The notes under the pieces are model-generated. The model saw only the letters and a program-made list of their open reading frames with translations, was not told the DNA's origin and made no database searches. Of a DNA stretch of 64,000 bases, positions 25,007-32,069 are shown in pieces. Location of the stretch: assembly GCA_965223295.1 (NCBI GenBank), contig CBDCWC010000002.1, positions 288,001 through 352,000 on the forward strand, read 5' to 3'. Position 1 is the first letter of the stretch, and every line of letters begins with the position of its first letter. A program made the translations under genes and the position numbers. Source of the DNA: Nitrospirales bacterium. Lineage in GTDB: Bacteria; Nitrospirota; Nitrospiria; Nitrospirales; UBA8639.

Positions 25007-28000
25007 TCAAGAGAGAAGCTGTTTCGTGATAGCTCCCTGATCGTAAAATTGGCGAGGTTCAATCATTAACGCGTTTTTGTGACTTTCAGACACATTCCAT
25101 ATTGGTTGAAATCGTTGCACCAAAAGGCTAATGGAATGTGTGTCTCGTTGCAAAATGCCTCCGATAATTAATAAACAATTATCGGAAAAAATCTCATTTT
25201 GTTGTTTATTGGCAAACACATGATGTGGAATGGCCAAATCCAGAAAACCAAACTCATCTTCTAATGTGCCGAATGTCATGCCCTTGGCTGTTTGTGGCCG
25301 CTGTCTGACCAGTAGTAATCCACAGACTGTAATCATTTGTCCATTTTCTGTTTGACGGGCCATTTGGGTTGATAGATAGGGCAAGATTAGAGCCTTTCTG
25401 AGTCCTTCCATCGGATGTCCATGGAGTGAAAGATGGAATGTGTTGTAATCTTCTGTGATCGTTTCGTGTTGACTGAGTTTGTGGAAAACAGGACGATCAA
25501 TACGACTCAATGGGAGAGGTGAAAATATATTGGGTTGTTGCGATTGATAGTTCAGTTGATATTCTAGGATTTGCCATAGACTATGGCGTTGATCGAGCCC
25601 GAAACATGAAAATACATTTCCCATTGCTAAACGATGGATGATATTGTTGCGTAATGTGACTCGGCGAAGAAAATCGTGCAAGTCATGAAATGGTCTTTGA
25701 TTGATGAGCTGTTGCGCTTGCCGTTTCTCTAATCCTTTGACCACGCGCCATCCCAAACGTACGGCGTTGTTTTCTAGGGTACAGTCCCACTGTGATTGAT
25801 TAGGGTGAACGGGTAAAATTTGTACGCCATGGCGTTTAGCATCGTCAATGAGCGTGTGGACAGCATAGAATCCCAGAGGCTGGGAGTTAATGAGCGCGCA
25901 CAAAAAGATAGCTGGATAATGACATTTCACATATGCCGAGGCGTAGGCTAACAGCGCAAAACTTGCTGAGTGGCTTTCAGGAAATCCATATTGCGCAAAG
26001 CCTTTGATCTGTTGAAAGACACGTTCAGCAAAGGTTTGGGGAAGTCCGTTTCGTTGTAAGCCAGCCATTAAACGTGCGCCAGTTTTTTCAATAGAGCCTT
26101 CCGAACGCCATGCCGCAATCGCGCGGCGCAACTCATCAGCTTCTCCCGGTGTAAAGTCTGCCAGCTCAATAGCCATTTTCATGACTTGTTCTTGAAACAG
26201 CGGAATGCCGAGGGTTTTGCCTAAAATAGTCCTGAGCTTTGGATGAGGATAGTCGACTTCCTCTATCTTGCGGCGTCGTTTCAAATACGGGTGAACCATT
26301 TTTCCTTGGATTGGGCCTGGACGAACGATAGCAATTTGAATGACGAGGTCATAAAAATTTTTTGGCAAGAGCCGGCCCAGCATTGAGATTTGGGCGCGGC
26401 TTTCAATTTGAAAGGTTCCAACGGTGTCAGCATGTTGAATCATGCGAAATGTCTTCGGGTCATTGGCAGGAATTTCGTGGAGCTGCATGCCAATCGCATC
26501 CAGACTCTTTCGAAGGGTAGAAAGCATTCCCAGGGAAAGGATATCGATTTTCAAAAGCCCCAGATAGTCCAAGTCATACTTATCCCATTGAATGATCGTT
26601 CGTCCTTCCATGCGAGCGGGTTCAACAGGCACGATGTCAATGATTGGATCAGCCGATAGGGTAAAGCCTCCACTATGAATAGAAAGATGACGAGGAAATC
26701 CTTTCATCTCTTCGGTGAGTTCTTCGACCTGTTGTTGGCAATGTGGAATGTTCGTCTTGGCTGCTAACGAATCAAAGTTCTTCTCTATGTTTTTTGCTGA
26801 TTGATTGCCAATGTTCAAGCCTAGGCTTTTACTGACTTCACGAAAGGCCTGACGACGACGATAGGTCACAACCGCGCTGATCATGGCGGCACGATCTCGG
26901 CCATACTTGTCATAGATATAATGGATTACTTCTTCCCGCCGTTCATGTTCAAAGTCCACATCGATATCAGGCGGCTCTCCACGTTCGGCCGAAATAAAAC
27001 GTTCAAATAGAAGATTCATCTGAACAGGATCAATGGCCGTAATGCCTAGGCAATAACACATCACACTGTTTGCAGCGGAGCCTCGCCCTTGGCAGAGGAT
27101 CTTTTGCTTTCTCGCAAATTGTACGATGTCATAAATTGTTAAAAAGTAATCGGCAAAGCCTAAGTTTTTTGTGAGCATGAGTTCATGCCGAATTTGCCGT
27201 GCGACCTCTTTTGGAATCTTTCCATGATAGCGTATACGGGCTCCTTGCCATGTTTCATGTTCTAAATAGCTTTGTGCGGTATGATTTTGTGGAATCCATT
27301 CTGAAGGGTAGCGATAGCGCAGCTCACTGGGACAAAAGGTACAACGTTCAGCAATCTCTAGAGTATTAGAAAGAGCTTCTGGTATATCAGCAAACAATTG
27401 CTGCATCAGTTGAGGTGACTTGAGGTAGTGCTCGTTGTTAGAGAACAATCTGAATCCACTAGATTGCACAGATTGCCCATGTCGAATGGCCGTGAGAACA
27501 TCATGCAACTTTTGGCGTTCAGACACGTGATAATGCACGTCATTAGAGGCCGCAATTTTGCTGCCCCACCTCTGAGCGAGTTTCCGTGCCGTGTTGAGAC
27601 GTTGTTGGTCATGGCCGTCTTTGAAACGAGATACAGGAATGTACAAACGATCGTCAAAGAGTGTTTTGAGGAGAGGAAACGGGGCCTGTTCATGGGGTAG
27701 GGCAAGCAGGCCGTCATGGCCAGGTCGTGTCATAAAGTGTTGCAATTCGTCAATCGTAAGCGAGGCTTTTCCTTTAGGCTTATCTTGATGGCTGGTCGTA
27801 ATCATTCGGCATAAAAGGCTATAGGCTTGGCGATCTTGTGCGAGGAGTGTAAGGCGGGGATGTTGGGAAAGTGCTAGCGAGGTACCAACAATTAACTTAA
27901 GTGCTGGATAGTGTTTGGCAGCCCAATAGGCTTTGGGAATCGCATAGACACCATCATGATCCGTAATGGCGATAGCTGATAGTCCAAGTTCGGCGGCGCG

Positions 28001-28078
28001 GTGAATCAGTTCTTCAGGGTGAGAGGCTCCAGTCAAAAATGAAAAATTGGTCTTGCATTGCAATTCGGCATACATCAA
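25007..28078 (-). CDS. dnaE2: error-prone DNA polymerase DnaE2 (ImuC)
   Basis: YAELQCKTNFSFL, QGRGSAANS, EPPDIDVDFEHERREE, PRHLSIHSGG, YGFPESH; downstream of imuB. Confidence 0.95.
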   Translation of the reverse strand: MMYAELQCKTNFSFLTGASHPEELIHRAAELGLSAIAITDHDGVYAIPKAYWAAKHYPALKLIVGTSLALSQHPRLTLLAQDRQAYSLLCRMITTSHQDKPKGKASLTIDELQHFMTRPGHDGLLALPHEQAPFPLLKTLFDDRLYIPVSRFKDGHDQQRLNTARKLAQRWGSKIAASNDVHYHVSERQKLHDVLTAIRHGQSVQSSGFRLFSNNEHYLKSPQLMQQLFADIPEALSNTLEIAERCTFCPSELRYRYPSEWIPQNHTAQSYLEHETWQGARIRYHGKIPKEVARQIRHELMLTKNLGFADYFLTIYDIVQFARKQKILCQGRGSAANSVMCYCLGITAIDPVQMNLLFERFISAERGEPPDIDVDFEHERREEVIHYIYDKYGRDRAAMISAVVTYRRRQAFREVSKSLGLNIGNQSAKNIEKNFDSLAAKTNIPHCQQQVEELTEEMKGFPRHLSIHSGGFTLSADPIIDIVPVEPARMEGRTIIQWDKYDLDYLGLLKIDILSLGMLSTLRKSLDAIGMQLHEIPANDPKTFRMIQHADTVGTFQIESRAQISMLGRLLPKNFYDLVIQIAIVRPGPIQGKMVHPYLKRRRKIEEVDYPHPKLRTILGKTLGIPLFQEQVMKMAIELADFTPGEADELRRAIAAWRSEGSIEKTGARLMAGLQRNGLPQTFAERVFQQIKGFAQYGFPESHSASFALLAYASAYVKCHYPAIFLCALINSQPLGFYAVHTLIDDAKRHGVQILPVHPNQSQWDCTLENNAVRLGWRVVKGLEKRQAQQLINQRPFHDLHDFLRRVTLRNNIIHRLAMGNVFSCFGLDQRHSLWQILEYQLNYQSQQPNIFSPLPLSRIDRPVFHKLSQHETITEDYNTFHLSLHGHPMEGLRKALILPYLSTQMARQTENGQMITVCGLLLVRQRPQTAKGMTFGTLEDEFGFLDLAIPHHVFANKQQNEIFSDNCLLIIGGILQRDTHSISLLVQRFQPIWNVSESHKNALMIEPRQFYDQGAITKQLLS

Positions 28079-28092
28079 TTCCAGATACCTTG

Positions 28093-29358
28093 TTAATCAA
28101 AATATCCATGAAGATAATAATCATTCGAACCGGGAATCTGAAAAATCCATAATCGTTCCCCAGTATGCGTGTGTATCGTGTAATAGTTTCTGTCAAAGGA
28201 GTGATCCCACCATTCTCCGCAGAGGTGCTCGGGCCCATCGGTCTCGATGATGTTCCATTGTGTTGTTCTACAGACGATAGATGAATAGCTCTTCTTTATG
28301 TGTTCGGGGTGCCTGAGGAGCCGGAGAGGGCGTTTCGGAAACGGAAGGCTCACGGTTGATGGGAGCTCCATAGTTTTTTGCCATGCCCGTTCTGGACAAT
28401 AATGTTCAATCGGAGAGGCCAGAAAAGATGTCCCCTTTCCCACTCGTTCTGTAATTCGTGCAATGAGTGATGTCCAGGCCTCGTGCTCGTCTTCTTGGCG
28501 ACTGAACAGGTTCGTCTGTGACCCATGCCATGGTGAGGTTTCTAGGGCTTGTAGCGAGAGAAAGATCACAGGTGACTTTAAGGGTTCTGTGTTGAGTGTT
28601 CGATGCAACCGCTCGCGCATGATAGCCAGAATGGTTTGAGGATTCGATTGAGGTAATGGGAAATCAATAATCCATCTGCGCATCGGTTCTCGAATTGTCG
28701 AATACGGTTCTTGTTTGATCACAAATTCTAGTGTTCCCATTCGTTCAGCTCGTCCGCGTAGCCGGACCGTCAATCGATTAAGCAACCTCTTAAGCATAAA
28801 CAAGAGCGGTTCTAGGTTTTGAATCGCGTAGCTTTCATCAATATCAATGGCTTCCACAATGTGCTCTTGTTTCGTAAAGAGCGGCCAAAGAAGGGACGTC
28901 GCATCGTTGGCGCGTTGAGCAATGAATAAGCCGAGTGTGCCAAATCTGGAGCCCCAAGTTGATGCTGGAAATTTGAGGAAATCTTCAATCGTACAAATTC
29001 CGAGTTGCTTGAGCGCAACGAGCATGTTGTCTGCGGTAGTACCTGAATAAAATGGGTCCCAATAATCCGTGATGGCATCAATTGGCAGCCTCAACTTTGT
29101 TGTACATTGATAGCGAGCGAGAGCCAAAGCTGTTGGGAGATCTTCACCGATAGCAAGGCTGGCTTGGACTTCAAAGGATGCCAGCATCTCTTGCAAGCCA
29201 GCTAGTACGACCTCCTCTGTATAAAGATGGCGAGATTTACCAATTCCTAAAAAAACCGCTTCATGACTCACAGCAATTTGTGGTGTCCAGTGTAGGCAGG
29301 CTTCAGCAAGAGCTGAAAGGGGAGACGGTGAGTCAAAGAGTAAGCACAGGACTTTCAT
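28093..29358 (-). CDS. imuB: ImuB, inactive Y-family polymerase homologue
   Basis: C-terminal RPLRLL, GPEHLCGEWW, RNYY, LHGYFD; operon position. Confidence 0.88.
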   Translation of the reverse strand: MKVLCLLFDSPSPLSALAEACLHWTPQIAVSHEAVFLGIGKSRHLYTEEVVLAGLQEMLASFEVQASLAIGEDLPTALALARYQCTTKLRLPIDAITDYWDPFYSGTTADNMLVALKQLGICTIEDFLKFPASTWGSRFGTLGLFIAQRANDATSLLWPLFTKQEHIVEAIDIDESYAIQNLEPLLFMLKRLLNRLTVRLRGRAERMGTLEFVIKQEPYSTIREPMRRWIIDFPLPQSNPQTILAIMRERLHRTLNTEPLKSPVIFLSLQALETSPWHGSQTNLFSRQEDEHEAWTSLIARITERVGKGTSFLASPIEHYCPERAWQKTMELPSTVSLPFPKRPLRLLRHPEHIKKSYSSIVCRTTQWNIIETDGPEHLCGEWWDHSFDRNYYTIHTHTGERLWIFQIPGSNDYYLHGYFD

Positions 29359-29360
29359 GG

Positions 29361-29551
29361 TGGACTATTGAATAATGAAGATATCAATGGACATATATGC
29401 CCATCGTGATGTTAGGTACGAAGAGCTTTGGGGCAGTTCAAAAAAGTCCATCCAGCAAGGCCGCAGCCATTTTTGCGCGCGGAGCGTACTAATACTACGT
29501 GAGCACGGGAAAATGGCGAGAAAGCCGCTGGGGGTTTTTTTCAACAGCCCC
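29361..29551 (+). mobile_element. MITE family A, long form, at the imuA/imuB junction
   Basis: TIRs (T)GGACTATTGAA / TTCAACAGCCCC; CATGGT repeated at 29356-29361 and 29551-29556 (ends ambiguous by 1 bp). Confidence 0.85.
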
Positions 29552-30071
29552 ATGGTTGTTTGGTCACCATGACAGTGAGATCACCTGTGATGCCTTTCTG
29601 ATGAACATGAAGTTGCATGCGAATTGGCCATGCAGATTGTAGATAGTCTGAAAGAAGAATTAACACACAATTGGCTCTTTCTGTTGTTAGCTGCAAGCGT
29701 CGTAACATGGTCAAATTAAATGGTGCCGTATCGACAATCACGACCTGAAATAATTGACTGCGTAGGAGTTGGAGTGTCACCCACGGGACGTCTTTCCCAG
29801 CTTCATTAAACAGGAGCCGATCCAGGGCGACGTGTCGTTGAAGGACGGCGCAGGGATAGAGCGAGAGCACCGATTCTACCCAGGCCGCCTGTAAGTGAGG
29901 GTTTTCAGCAAGAAACTGCATCACAAGTTCAGTTTTCCCTTTTCCCGCAATTTCGGTCATGATTCCTCGTAGTATCCCAGATGGTATGAGTGAGCATTGG
30001 AATGTTTCCCTAGTTGGTGACTCATGAATTGCTCGAATCTGAGCGCGCAGCTGTTCTAATGATGACGACAT
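29541..30071 (-). CDS. imuA: ImuA, RecA-like accessory protein
   Basis: GILRGIMTEIAGKGKTE, LYPCAV, QVVIVD, LRRLQL. True start ATG 30071; the 37 upstream residues in the ORF track are MITE sequence. Confidence 0.85.
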   Translation of the reverse strand: MSSSLEQLRAQIRAIHESPTRETFQCSLIPSGILRGIMTEIAGKGKTELVMQFLAENPHLQAAWVESVLSLYPCAVLQRHVALDRLLFNEAGKDVPWVTLQLLRSQLFQVVIVDTAPFNLTMLRRLQLTTERANCVLILLSDYLQSAWPIRMQLHVHQKGITGDLTVMVTKQPWGC

Positions 30072-30212
30072 GGGCACCTCTAAAAACTGATGATTTTTTC
30101 TGAGAGGAAGGAAGCGGTGCGCGGAAAACCGCAGTGTATGGGCCAATACATGAGGATTTGAGCACGCCGCTGACGCCGCCATCGGGAAAAAGGATAGTTT
30201 TTAGAGGTGCCC
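30072..30212 (+). mobile_element. MITE family B at the lexA/imuA junction
   Basis: Perfect 17-bp TIR GGGCACCTCTAAAAACT; ACAT TSD at 30068-30071 and 30213-30216. Confidence 0.9.
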
Positions 30213-30218
30213 ACATGT

Positions 30219-30809
30219 TTATGGTAATGAGCGAAGCACACCGACTAAGACCCCTTCAATTCTAAATAAGTGAGGTGGCTTTACCGTTATGGCATCATAC
30301 TGAGCATTTGCCGGACGCAATTCGATTGCTTGACGTTTCTTGTAAAACTTTTTGAGTGTTGCTTCACCATCAATCGATGCAACAACGGTCTGCCCGTTAT
30401 GAGCTGTGAATTGCTTGCGGATGATCACATAATCACCATCAACAATCGCATCGTCGATCATTGAATTCCCTCGTACTTGAAGCACATAGTGATCAAACCC
30501 AGTCTTGAGGAAATTCGCTGGGACTTCTGTCAATTCGCCATGCATAACATGTTCGATGGGTTTGCCTGCCGCCACTTTGCCCAAAAGAGGAAGGCGATTG
30601 GCTGTTTGGGTGACAGCCACGCTCCTTTGTCGAGCCTGGGTTGTGAGATGCCCCTGTTCTTTGAGCCGTCGGACATAGGCTGACACGGTTCCTCGTGATT
30701 TGAATGAAAAATGATTGGCAATATCTTGATTGGATGGCGCATAGCTATGCCGATGTGTAAATTCCCGGATAAAGTCTATGACCTGTTTCTGTTTTGGGGT
30801 TAAAGCCAT
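30219..30809 (-). CDS. lexA: LexA repressor
   Basis: LTPKQ..wHTH; VAAG cleavage site; GNSM (Ser); TLKK (Lys). Confidence 0.95.
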   Translation of the reverse strand: MALTPKQKQVIDFIREFTHRHSYAPSNQDIANHFSFKSRGTVSAYVRRLKEQGHLTTQARQRSVAVTQTANRLPLLGKVAAGKPIEHVMHGELTEVPANFLKTGFDHYVLQVRGNSMIDDAIVDGDYVIIRKQFTAHNGQTVVASIDGEATLKKFYKKRQAIELRPANAQYDAITVKPPHLFRIEGVLVGVLRSLP

Positions 30810-30814
30810 AAAAA

Positions 30815-30844
30815 ATCATAATCGCTCAGATATCGCTCAGTCAA
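30815..30844 (-). promoter_or_regulatory. lexA promoter with direct-repeat operator
   Basis: TTGACT-N18-TATGAT; CTGAGCGAT repeated at an 11-bp period across the spacer. Confidence 0.7.
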
Positions 30845-30977
30845 GAGAACAGTTTTTTATGGCTTCAAACCCAAGAATTCAATCATCTTTTCGTTTGTAT
30901 TCTTCTGGCTTATGAGGGTATCGTAGCGACAGATGTGGTGAATTTTTTAACTATCAATGACATAAGGAGAGAGTCTT

Positions 30978-31424
30978 ATGAGAATGGTTATTCCTATGAT
31001 TATTTTGGTTCTTTTCCCTGTTTTGGTCTTTGCGCAAACCAATCCGGGGATGCCTCCCAATATGCCGATGGATAGGGAAAAGATGCAGAGGATGCAGGAG
31101 ATGCAGAAAAATATGCAAAATATGGATATGGGAAAATTGCAAGAAGCTATGGCGTGTATGAAAACGATTGATCGGTCGGCGTTAAAAGGATTAGACGAAG
31201 AAGGAAAGAAAATACAAGCCGAGCTGAAAGAGTTGTGCAGAAGTGGAAATCGTGATGAGGCACAGGAAAAGGCTATGGAGTACGGAAAAGACATGATGAG
31301 CAGGCCAGAAATCAAGAAAATGCGTGAATGCAGCAAGAAGGCTGAGGGCATGATGCCTAAAATGGGTTTTGAAGATTTGATGGAAGAGGGAAAAGATCGT
31401 CATGTCTGTGATGATTTTCCTTGA
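30978..31424 (+). CDS. secreted Met-rich helical hypothetical protein
   Basis: AAGGAG RBS; signal peptide (VFA-Q); four Cys. Confidence 0.75.
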   Translation: MRMVIPMIILVLFPVLVFAQTNPGMPPNMPMDREKMQRMQEMQKNMQNMDMGKLQEAMACMKTIDRSALKGLDEEGKKIQAELKELCRSGNRDEAQEKAMEYGKDMMSRPEIKKMRECSKKAEGMMPKMGFEDLMEEGKDRHVCDDFP

Positions 31425-31436
31425 ATCACTTGAGGG

Positions 31437-31524
31437 TATATTCCCCGCTGCTTGCGGCGTCATAAACTACTCGCATGAGCGAGTACATTCATAATACCCC
31501 GTCCGTTTGCGGCGGGGATCATTT
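31437..31524. repeat. REP-like paired palindrome element
   Basis: TCCCCGCTGCTTGCGGCG ... TACTCGC-ATGA-GCGAGTA ... CCCCGTCCGTTTGCGGCGGGGA. Confidence 0.6.
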
Positions 31525-31556
31525 ATTAGCGCCGTAAGAACGTATGAGAGAACAAG

Positions 31557-32069
31557 TTGTTTTTAAGACATTTAGGAAAATGTGTTTCCTTTTTATGCAT
31601 TTCCCTTTCTCTAGAGCATGTGAAAGTAGATGAAGGGGGAGAATGGAAAGGCATATTGTTGGTGAGACATTGGTGCCAATTTTTTACGTGTGCCATTATG
31701 CTCTGTTGGTCTATGGCGGCATGGGCGGAAATCGATCGAACTCTTCTGGTTGGAGATTGGTGTTTGGTGGATCAATCGATGCTGGGATATCGCTTTGAGT
31801 CCTCACCACCCAAAGTGATACGTGACAATTTGAAGACGAAAGTCGGACAACGTTATCAATTTATCGATAACCATACGGTGGACATACAGATGAATGATAA
31901 GACGAGTGCCAGGTTCACGTACAAAATTTCTGGCAAGAAACAAAACCGGATTCGCATTAAAAAGTGGGAGAGCTTTGCCGTGACTTCTTTGACAGACTCT
32001 GAAATGGTTGCGAAGGCCCTCGGTACAGTGAACCATCGTTTTATACATGGAACATGTGCAGAGCCGTGA
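31557..32069 (+). CDS. secreted hypothetical protein, lipocalin-like
   Basis: AAWA signal end followed by LLVGDW (lipocalin GxW); beta-rich. Start probably downstream. Confidence 0.6.
   Translation: MFLRHLGKCVSFLCISLSLEHVKVDEGGEWKGILLVRHWCQFFTCAIMLCWSMAAWAEIDRTLLVGDWCLVDQSMLGYRFESSPPKVIRDNLKTKVGQRYQFIDNHTVDIQMNDKTSARFTYKISGKKQNRIRIKKWESFAVTSLTDSEMVAKALGTVNHRFIHGTCAEP

Follow-up and report, generated by a model that had tools for sequence, protein, structure and literature searches.

A MITE lies between the lexA stop and the imuA start

We analyzed a window of 64,000 nucleotides from a Nitrospirales bacterium (assembly GCA_965223295.1, contig CBDCWC010000002.1, forward-strand positions 288,001 to 352,000), in which a damage-mutagenesis operon with the order lexA-imuA-imuB-dnaE2 runs on the minus strand with four of four open reading frames (ORFs) intact. 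Exactly between the lexA stop and the imuA start we found a small, non-coding transposable unit that breaks neither gene. The explanation we prefer, and consider probable, is that a non-autonomous MITE (miniature inverted-repeat transposable element) of the IS5 family transposed recently, and in the lineage of this genome (G000) only, into a 2-nt spacer between lexA and imuA. A staggered 4-bp cut at ATGT would have duplicated the imuA start codon, and because the start codon was copied in this way both genes would have stayed whole. According to this explanation, the copy survives because it is non-disruptive and not through any seeking of start codons.

The element, a member of a repeat family that we call family B, is 141 bp long, has IS5-type ends, and occupies positions 30072..30212 as read from the sequence. 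Its 17-bp terminal inverted repeats (TIRs), at 30072..30088 and 30196..30212, match at 17 of 17 positions and consist of GGGCACCTCTAAAAACT and its perfect complement. The element is flanked by two copies of the target-site duplication (TSD) ACAT, which is ATGT on the coding strand. The copy at 30068..30071 holds the functional imuA ATG (30071-30069), and the copy at 30213..30216 holds a duplicated ATG (30216-30214) located 2 nt past the lexA stop. On the minus strand, the order is the lexA TAA (30221-30219), AC, ATG, T, the MITE, and then ATG-TCG... of imuA. The imuA-side end of the MITE reads ...AGAGGTG-CCC, so that the hexamer GAGGTG (30080-30075) is separated from the imuA ATG by the three nucleotides CCC. 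An earlier note on this DNA (hereafter the original prediction) had described a 17-bp TIR element that duplicated ACAT over the imuA start and placed AGAGGTG 3 nt before the ATG, and direct reading confirmed each of these features; the span given there, 30062-30221, comprises the MITE, flanking bases, and the lexA stop. An Rfam covariance-model scan of window positions 28000-32000 at E <= 1 returned two chance matches to microRNA models only.

The position of the element relative to imuA depends on where imuA begins. A search for ImuA homologues found seven proteins, of which two 172-aa forms were informative for the start. In both (62-65% identity) the alignment includes the N-terminal 37 residues, which identifies the ATG at 30071 as the true imuA start. 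We observed that the public gene calls for ImuA in relatives (proteins P0003, P0004, P0005, and P0007) begin at the internal Met38 and are 136-139 aa long, and that the G000 record is 176 aa. Gene-calling programs probably choose the upstream ATG solely in genomes in which the TIR provides GAGGTG, which resembles a Shine-Dalgarno (SD) sequence.

The junction exists in three states

The original prediction held that the empty site would read lexA-TAA-AC-ATG. This site exists: one contig in each of the runs X3 and X5, ~89-94% identical to G000, skips exactly the 145 nt from 30068 to 30212. The full MITE form was found only in G000 and in the near-identical runs X1 and X2, which may be the source sample of G000. 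A third state is present in G035 and G072, two genomes of the same genus. Their junction has no full MITE, and GGGCACCTCTAAAA, a 14-15 nt remnant of an element end, stands directly before the imuA ATG. In both genomes lexA reads into the stub, which yields a protein of 200 aa compared with 196 aa, with four additional residues and a stub-derived TAA located 2 nt before the ATG. A second X5 contig, ~85% identical to G000, carries a 16-nt stub in place of 30072-30220.

Between the G000 copy and the family consensus there are 4 differences in 141 positions (2.8%), a value tied for the lowest of 36, and the copy has no mismatch in its TIRs or TSD. Divergence at 4-fold sites among G000, G035, and G072 is 0.295-0.325. 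These comparisons indicate that the G000 insertion is young and lineage-specific. Probably, the empty site is ancestral, the G000 copy is recent, and the stub goes back to a different and older insertion, for which ATAA, at the lexA stop, is the simplest site. The stub could have formed from such an insertion if one internal deletion then occurred and the old stop was lost (TAA to TCA or TTA). The relatives would then have received a separate, older hit by the same family and lost most of it, and the TIR stub would now encode the last four LexA codons and the stop. Dating of the older family B copies by their divergence from the consensus was rejected as unreliable owing to the presence of subfamilies.

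The cassette is mosaic among the three genomes. In imuA, G000 has 36 unique sites compared with 18 and 12, and in imuB-dnaE2, G072 has 311 unique sites compared with 197 and 207 (chi-square P 5.6e-6). Mosaicism reconciles an insertion at the imuA-imuB junction that is common to G000 and G035 (see below) with a stub that is common to G035 and G072. Relaxed selection on the G000 imuA was rejected as an explanation because synonymous and non-synonymous changes are both raised (18 and 12 versus 11/3 and 9/8). The G000 imuA branch is longer or recombinant, with no clear decay.

Family B shows a survival bias and no excess at start codons

We searched G000 for family B copies by allowing up to three mismatches in the TIR and requiring inverted pairs 100-300 bp apart. 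The search returned 103 matches, which resolved into 42 inverted pairs and 19 unpaired matches. A count of 42 paired-end copies is far above chance, and 36 of them are 136-145 bp long. Identical 4-bp flanks were found in 28 of the 42, with most of the others near-identical. The target consensus is C/WWWW/G, where slashes bound the duplicated tetramer, and the symmetrized logo of the 28 sites reads W-C/W-W-W-W/G-W. C occupies position -1 and G position +4 in 71% of sites each, and the outer TSD positions lack G or C.

To obtain a null expectation for start codons, we deleted the 42 copies in silico, each with one of its TSDs, predicted genes with a simple codon-usage script, and weighted positions by the target position weight matrix (PWM). 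We found that 72.9% of the motif-weighted target falls within coding sequence, compared with 1 of the 42 copies. The survival (or intergenic) bias of family B is therefore strong and supported, as the original prediction had offered among three possible explanations. Among tolerated positions, the share with a start codon 0-4 nt outward is 5.4% when predicted starts are counted and 8.1% when any candidate start is, so that 2.2-3.3 start-adjacent copies are expected of 41. The script found 1-2 (P(>=k) 0.86-0.90), and by eye we counted 3 of 42, namely imuA (offset 0), C3:958279 (offset 1), and C3:1025546 (offset 4). A fourth candidate is doubtful, being a 74-codon ORF within another repeat. The target motif itself yields ATG-like strings: the null puts 4.4-6.4% of the tolerated weight at offset 2 (NNATG), where most of the null start-adjacency weight sits. 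We conclude that a start-codon excess among family B insertions is not supported.

The other two start-adjacent copies, C3:958279 and C3:1025546, were not found at the orthologous sites of the four relatives G035, G072, G016, and G015. The copy at C3:1025546-1025686 splits a TAATG in which the stop and start of two co-directional genes (375 and 387 codons) overlapped, and the upstream gene now ends at a TAG to which the TIR contributes its first G. This site is empty in G072, where the flanks are 94-95% identical to those in G000.

IS5-type elements share the ends of family B

Two genomes of the same genus, G072 and G016, contain 1,255/1,256-bp elements with ends matching at 16/17 nt and an intact transposase ORF of 348 aa. 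The G072 transposase scored 282 bits against the IS5 model NF033581 (cut-off 140), and the parent-type element in G016 is flanked by the 4-bp TSD ATAT. The MITE shares only its terminal 16-22 nt with the 1,255-bp insertion sequence, and its 100-nt core is unrelated. Based on the shared ends and the equal TSD length, we infer that family B is mobilized by a shared-end IS5 transposase. Within G000 no NF033581 transposase scored above the cut-off (best 44.9 bits versus 140), and therefore its family B copies seem to lack a resident cognate transposase. An autonomous copy in G000 was also sought among the unpaired TIR matches and rejected, as these are fragments or copies interrupted by a second repeat, family A. 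With TIRs, a fixed 4-bp TSD, small multi-copy units without a transposase, and an autonomous partner, family B is a prokaryotic MITE.

Among 61 relatives' genomes sampled, 12 contain family B DNA with G000 counted; G072 has at least 40 matches and G035 has 2 copies. G035 also carries IS5 copies (304.5 bits), which we considered as the parent and rejected, because the two loci checked lack these ends within 4 mismatches and represent a different IS5 member. At least five intact IS5-model genes of another type are present in G035 alongside only those 2 family B copies.

The exact 17-mer end is present in at least 122 stretches of species-representative genomes from many phyla, often ~100-140 nt from contig ends, a placement typical of insertion sequences. 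In the metagenome-assembled genome (MAG) of a spirochaete (L085), ends matching 17/17 lie 1,200 bp apart with the TSD TTAA and enclose two ORFs matching DUF772 and DDE_Tnp_1; the two halves of this element scored 131.7 and 138 bits against NF033581. The nearest annotated plasmid genes are labeled "IS5 family transposase" (~60% identity). Among the matches listed, identical 17-mer ends also bound MITE-sized pairs in Faecousia MAGs (162 bp), in a MAG of Flavobacteriales (286 bp), and in one of Sulfurimonas (267 bp; L026, L053, L068, and L099 in total). Identical ends on MITE-sized pairs in unrelated phyla suggest that one IS5 lineage has spawned MITEs repeatedly across bacteria.

A family A element occupies the imuA-imuB junction

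The original prediction also stated that two consecutive junctions of this operon are each hit at the initiation codon without destroying a gene, and this description holds. In G072, imuA and imuB meet in an ATGA stop/start overlap with no insert. G000 and G035 carry a family A element at this junction, and its 5-bp duplication includes part or all of the imuB ATG. The window copy (~190 bp, 29361..29551) splits the overlap and supplies the last three residues of ImuA (WGC) and the TGA stop; the WGC tail is found only in genomes bearing family A. Some X3 and X5 contigs replace 288 nt (window 29314-29601) with 93 other letters, which represents a third state of the imuA-imuB junction.

Family A is very abundant: BLAST of window positions 29300-29620, which span the element, listed 276 high-scoring segment pairs (HSPs) in the 3.78 Mb genome, and the element alone (29362-29551) gave 230 HSPs, 57 of them full-length. 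The family occurs in two forms, one of 190 bp and one of 122 bp (29430-29551) nested within it. Counting a terminal G to the element gives a duplication of 5 bp, and 18 of the 57 full-length copies have identical flanks of at least 5 nt, a count that rests on our own element boundaries. Start-adjacent ends number 6-7 of 220, compared with 3.2-5.4 expected (P 0.11-0.29).

The insertion may lower or condition imuA translation

The original prediction suggested that the TIR donates a ribosome binding site to imuA. The spacing is plausible. The 16S tail is canonical (...GGATCACCTCCTTTCT), and the distance from GAGG to ATG at imuA is 5 nt; in 20 GAGG-bearing genes this spacing is 1-18 nt, with 15 of the 20 at 4-9 nt. 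However, the donated site is predicted to be fully paired in a hairpin. The junction transcript is predicted to fold with a minimum free energy of -61.3 kcal/mol and a z value of -5.95, more stably than any of 200 shuffled sequences, and the terminal stem of this fold is 23 bp. The predicted probability of being unpaired is 0.00 at every SD base and 0.01-0.07 at the AUG. Unmasking of the SD driven by termination at lexA was rejected as sufficient: when 9, 12, or 15 nt past the lexA stop were kept open, the AUG was partly freed and the SD stayed paired.

In place of the tight TAA-AC-ATG coupling, the insertion would introduce a 145-nt spacer able to form a long hairpin. The upstream ATG copy, which keeps the original TAA-AC-ATG context, would open a decoy ORF of 64 codons (30022..30216, minus strand) that runs through the MITE, passes over the start of imuA in a different frame, and stops 47 nt into that gene. 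Translation of this ORF is putative. The true imuA ATG lies 3 nt behind the TIR-borne GAGGTG, which would be locked in the TIR stem, and ribosomes on the decoy ORF could block access to imuA and at the same time expose its initiation site transiently. The genome contains an RNase III gene. With the GAGGTG predicted to be locked in the stem and the decoy frame in place, enhanced imuA translation is less likely than lowered translation, or than translation that depends on the stem being opened by ribosomes or RNase III.

The sole sigma-70-like promoter match for the operon is TTGACT-18-TATGAT, upstream of lexA (30844-30815, minus strand), with 10 of 12 hexamer matches, and no promoter-like or terminator-like site was found on the operon strand of the MITE. 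Given these two results, imuA is probably still transcribed from the lexA promoter, through the MITE.

Alternative explanations for the insertion

Several observations weigh against a recent, independent insertion with the consequences described above. The junction represents 6.8e-6 of the tolerated target weight, and an independent double hit there has P 0.0003-0.002 for 40-300 insertions, so either the site is a hot spot beyond the 10-bp motif or both states share one origin. Divergence from the consensus is an imperfect clock, since a copy that is 10.6% diverged is absent from G072 although the flanks there are 94-95% identical to those in G000, which points to subfamilies. The start-codon null used a crude gene caller written by us, which misplaced the start of imuA itself, and its PWM was trained on the same sites that it weights. 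GAGG is present within 22 nt upstream in just 20 of 162 genes with unambiguous starts, and therefore a donated SD may matter little either way. Finally, every effect on imuA stated here is inferred from folding and sequence; a search of the public runs found no RNA run that contains this stretch, and the one metatranscriptome listed shared next to nothing with it.

A single ancient insertion at ATGT, before the three species split, would dispense with two independent hits of such low a priori probability. Under this model the element was kept in G000, lost by precise excision from the empty-site lineage, and removed by imprecise deletion from G035 and G072. Palindromic elements between short direct repeats are known to excise precisely by slippage, and the G000 MITE is flanked by such repeats, here the 5 nt ACATG; the mosaic cassette also favors this model. 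However, the 2x17 TIR and 2x4 TSD bases carry 0 mismatches and the copy is 2.8% from its consensus, compared with ~0.3 per 4-fold site between the species, and the left flank of the remnant is 6 nt shorter than that of G000. The model would therefore need two deletions and at least two substitutions, whereas an insertion at ATAA would need one deletion and one or two substitutions. We regard a single ancient insertion as unlikely. The start-codon target bias raised by the original prediction, in which the transposase prefers initiation regions and hence hit two consecutive starts, can draw on the two different families found at consecutive starts in one operon, on the three start-adjacent copies counted by eye, and on a target motif that yields ATG-like strings. 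These observations are outweighed by the census, in which neither family B nor family A shows a supported excess over its null. The imuA insertion site reaches no more than the 92.6th percentile of the target-motif score (both junction tetramers are at the 93rd-94th), and by eye ~9-11 of the 42 copies lie within 12 nt of the stop codon of an ORF of at least 100 codons instead. Targeting of start codons is highly improbable.

The remaining suggestion of the original prediction was domesticated attenuation, in which selection maintains the MITE hairpin as a gate on the mutagenic polymerase genes, with their expression lowered or made conditional relative to LexA. A strong predicted hairpin that masks the SD and the AUG, the decoy ORF, traces of the family at the junction in three lineages, and the improbability of the junction as a chance double target are all in its favor, and passages of PMC10969869 offer a precedent in Correia elements, which RNase III cleaves at their TIRs and which alter transcript levels. 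On the other hand, the copy is among the youngest of its family, the full MITE is confined to G000 and the near-identical X1 and X2, closer relatives (the X3 and X5 contigs) have a clean empty site, and the two other start-adjacent copies are absent from four relatives. We found no signal of orientation or conservation. Distant relatives have deleted all but 14-15 nt and regained the 2-nt stop/start spacing, which points to selection for a tight junction and not for the hairpin. Domestication is very unlikely by this evidence. We also considered that the junction is a recurrent landing site, with at least two hits within 6 nt in one small clade, that the MITE acts as a translational gate, and that the stub was exapted as the LexA C-terminus and stop in sister lineages. 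The duplicated ATG would draw ribosomes that leave lexA into the decoy frame, and their passage, or cleavage by RNase III, would unmask the TIR-borne SD. If this were true, a transposon would set the amount of error-prone polymerase per LexA. We hold this combination to be very unlikely, and retain a recent, tolerated insertion in the G000 lineage as the probable explanation.

Genes and distribution of the operon

The lexA gene (30219..30809, minus strand) encodes 196 aa and matches TIGR00498 with 173.5 bits (cut-off 110.95). Because a second lexA is present in the genome, elsewhere on contig C2, the window lexA appears to be a repressor dedicated to the cassette. A tandem direct repeat of CTGAGCGAT overlaps the promoter-like site upstream of lexA (30815..30844) and is a candidate LexA operator, in an unusual direct-repeat form. 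The imuA-like gene (29541..30071, minus strand, 176 aa) takes its last three codons and stop from the family A element. Its product matches NF033429 weakly, with 51.5 bits (below the cut-off of 150) over profile positions 33-179 of 181. The imuB-like gene (28093..29358, minus strand, 421 aa) is assigned from gene order and from a weak match to a Y-family polymerase (Pol IV model, E 0.0075). Pfam gave no match for either ImuA or ImuB. The final gene, dnaE2 (25007..28078, minus strand), encodes an error-prone DNA polymerase of 1023 aa that matches NF004225 with 1198 bits (cut-off 939).

Of 401 genomes sampled in the order, only G000, G035, and G072, which belong to the same genus, were found to have ImuA of the window type. 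A scan of metagenome contigs with ImuA gave 132 pattern matches, with 0 confirmed. In G035, the two flanks of the G000 cassette meet directly, with the cassette as their neighbor, and therefore the lexA-imuA-imuB-dnaE2 block was moved or re-inserted locally; G072 is collinear with G000.

Significance and relation to known systems

One operon junction is found here in three natural states: empty, freshly occupied, and reduced to a stub that encodes a stop codon. The junction shows that MITEs may occupy start codons harmlessly, with the target duplication copying the codon, and that MITE ends can turn into coding sequence. The empty and occupied forms make a suitable pair for asking whether the hairpin of a MITE breaks the coupling between a repressor gene and the mutagenic polymerase genes that it controls. 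The analysis also defines an undescribed IS5-type MITE family in Nitrospirales, together with its target motif and parent insertion sequence. Our literature search, with ISfinder and subscription journals outside its scope, returned no relevant paper containing the end sequence and none on Nitrospira MITEs.

According to PMC5493358, IS5 in E. coli has insertion hot spots that are tied to DNA structure. Family B resembles the IS5 family in having ends that match transposase-bearing elements of the same genus and of the spirochaete MAG at 17/17 or 16/17 positions, and in its 4-bp AT-rich TSD. It differs in that the G000 MITE shares only the terminal 16-22 nt with such elements, and the family looks orphaned in G000, where no transposase scored above the cut-off.

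Correia elements of Neisseria have a TA duplication and TIRs of ~26 bp, whereas family B has a 4-bp TSD, 17-bp TIRs, and no sequence relation to them. The likeness lies in a short TIR-bounded repeat with a predicted 23-bp stem in a genome with an RNase III gene. As described in parts of PMC10969869, Correia elements are bounded by TIRs, co-transcribed, form long hairpins, and undergo RNase III cleavage at the TIRs, with changes in downstream expression. Parts of PMC3184786 report that the Neisseria REP2 and Borrelia IR repeats carry a promoter, a site for ribosome binding, and an ATG directly upstream of host ORFs. Unlike these, family B provides only an SD-like hexamer, its ATG is the duplicated host codon, and it has no promoter-like site; REP2 is without TIRs.

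ImuA, ImuB, and DnaE2 act together in translesion synthesis, according to PMC11002988. The window cassette is like the known lexA-imuA-imuB-dnaE2 cassettes in its canonical gene order, in LexA and DnaE2 that score above curated cut-offs, and in its dedicated second lexA. It is unlike them in its very divergent ImuA and ImuB, which fall below family cut-offs, and in its presence in just those 3 of 401 genomes of the order. With these comparisons, we conclude that the element is a bacterial MITE with IS5-type ends and no new kind of system; repeats that affect initiation or transcript processing are already known.

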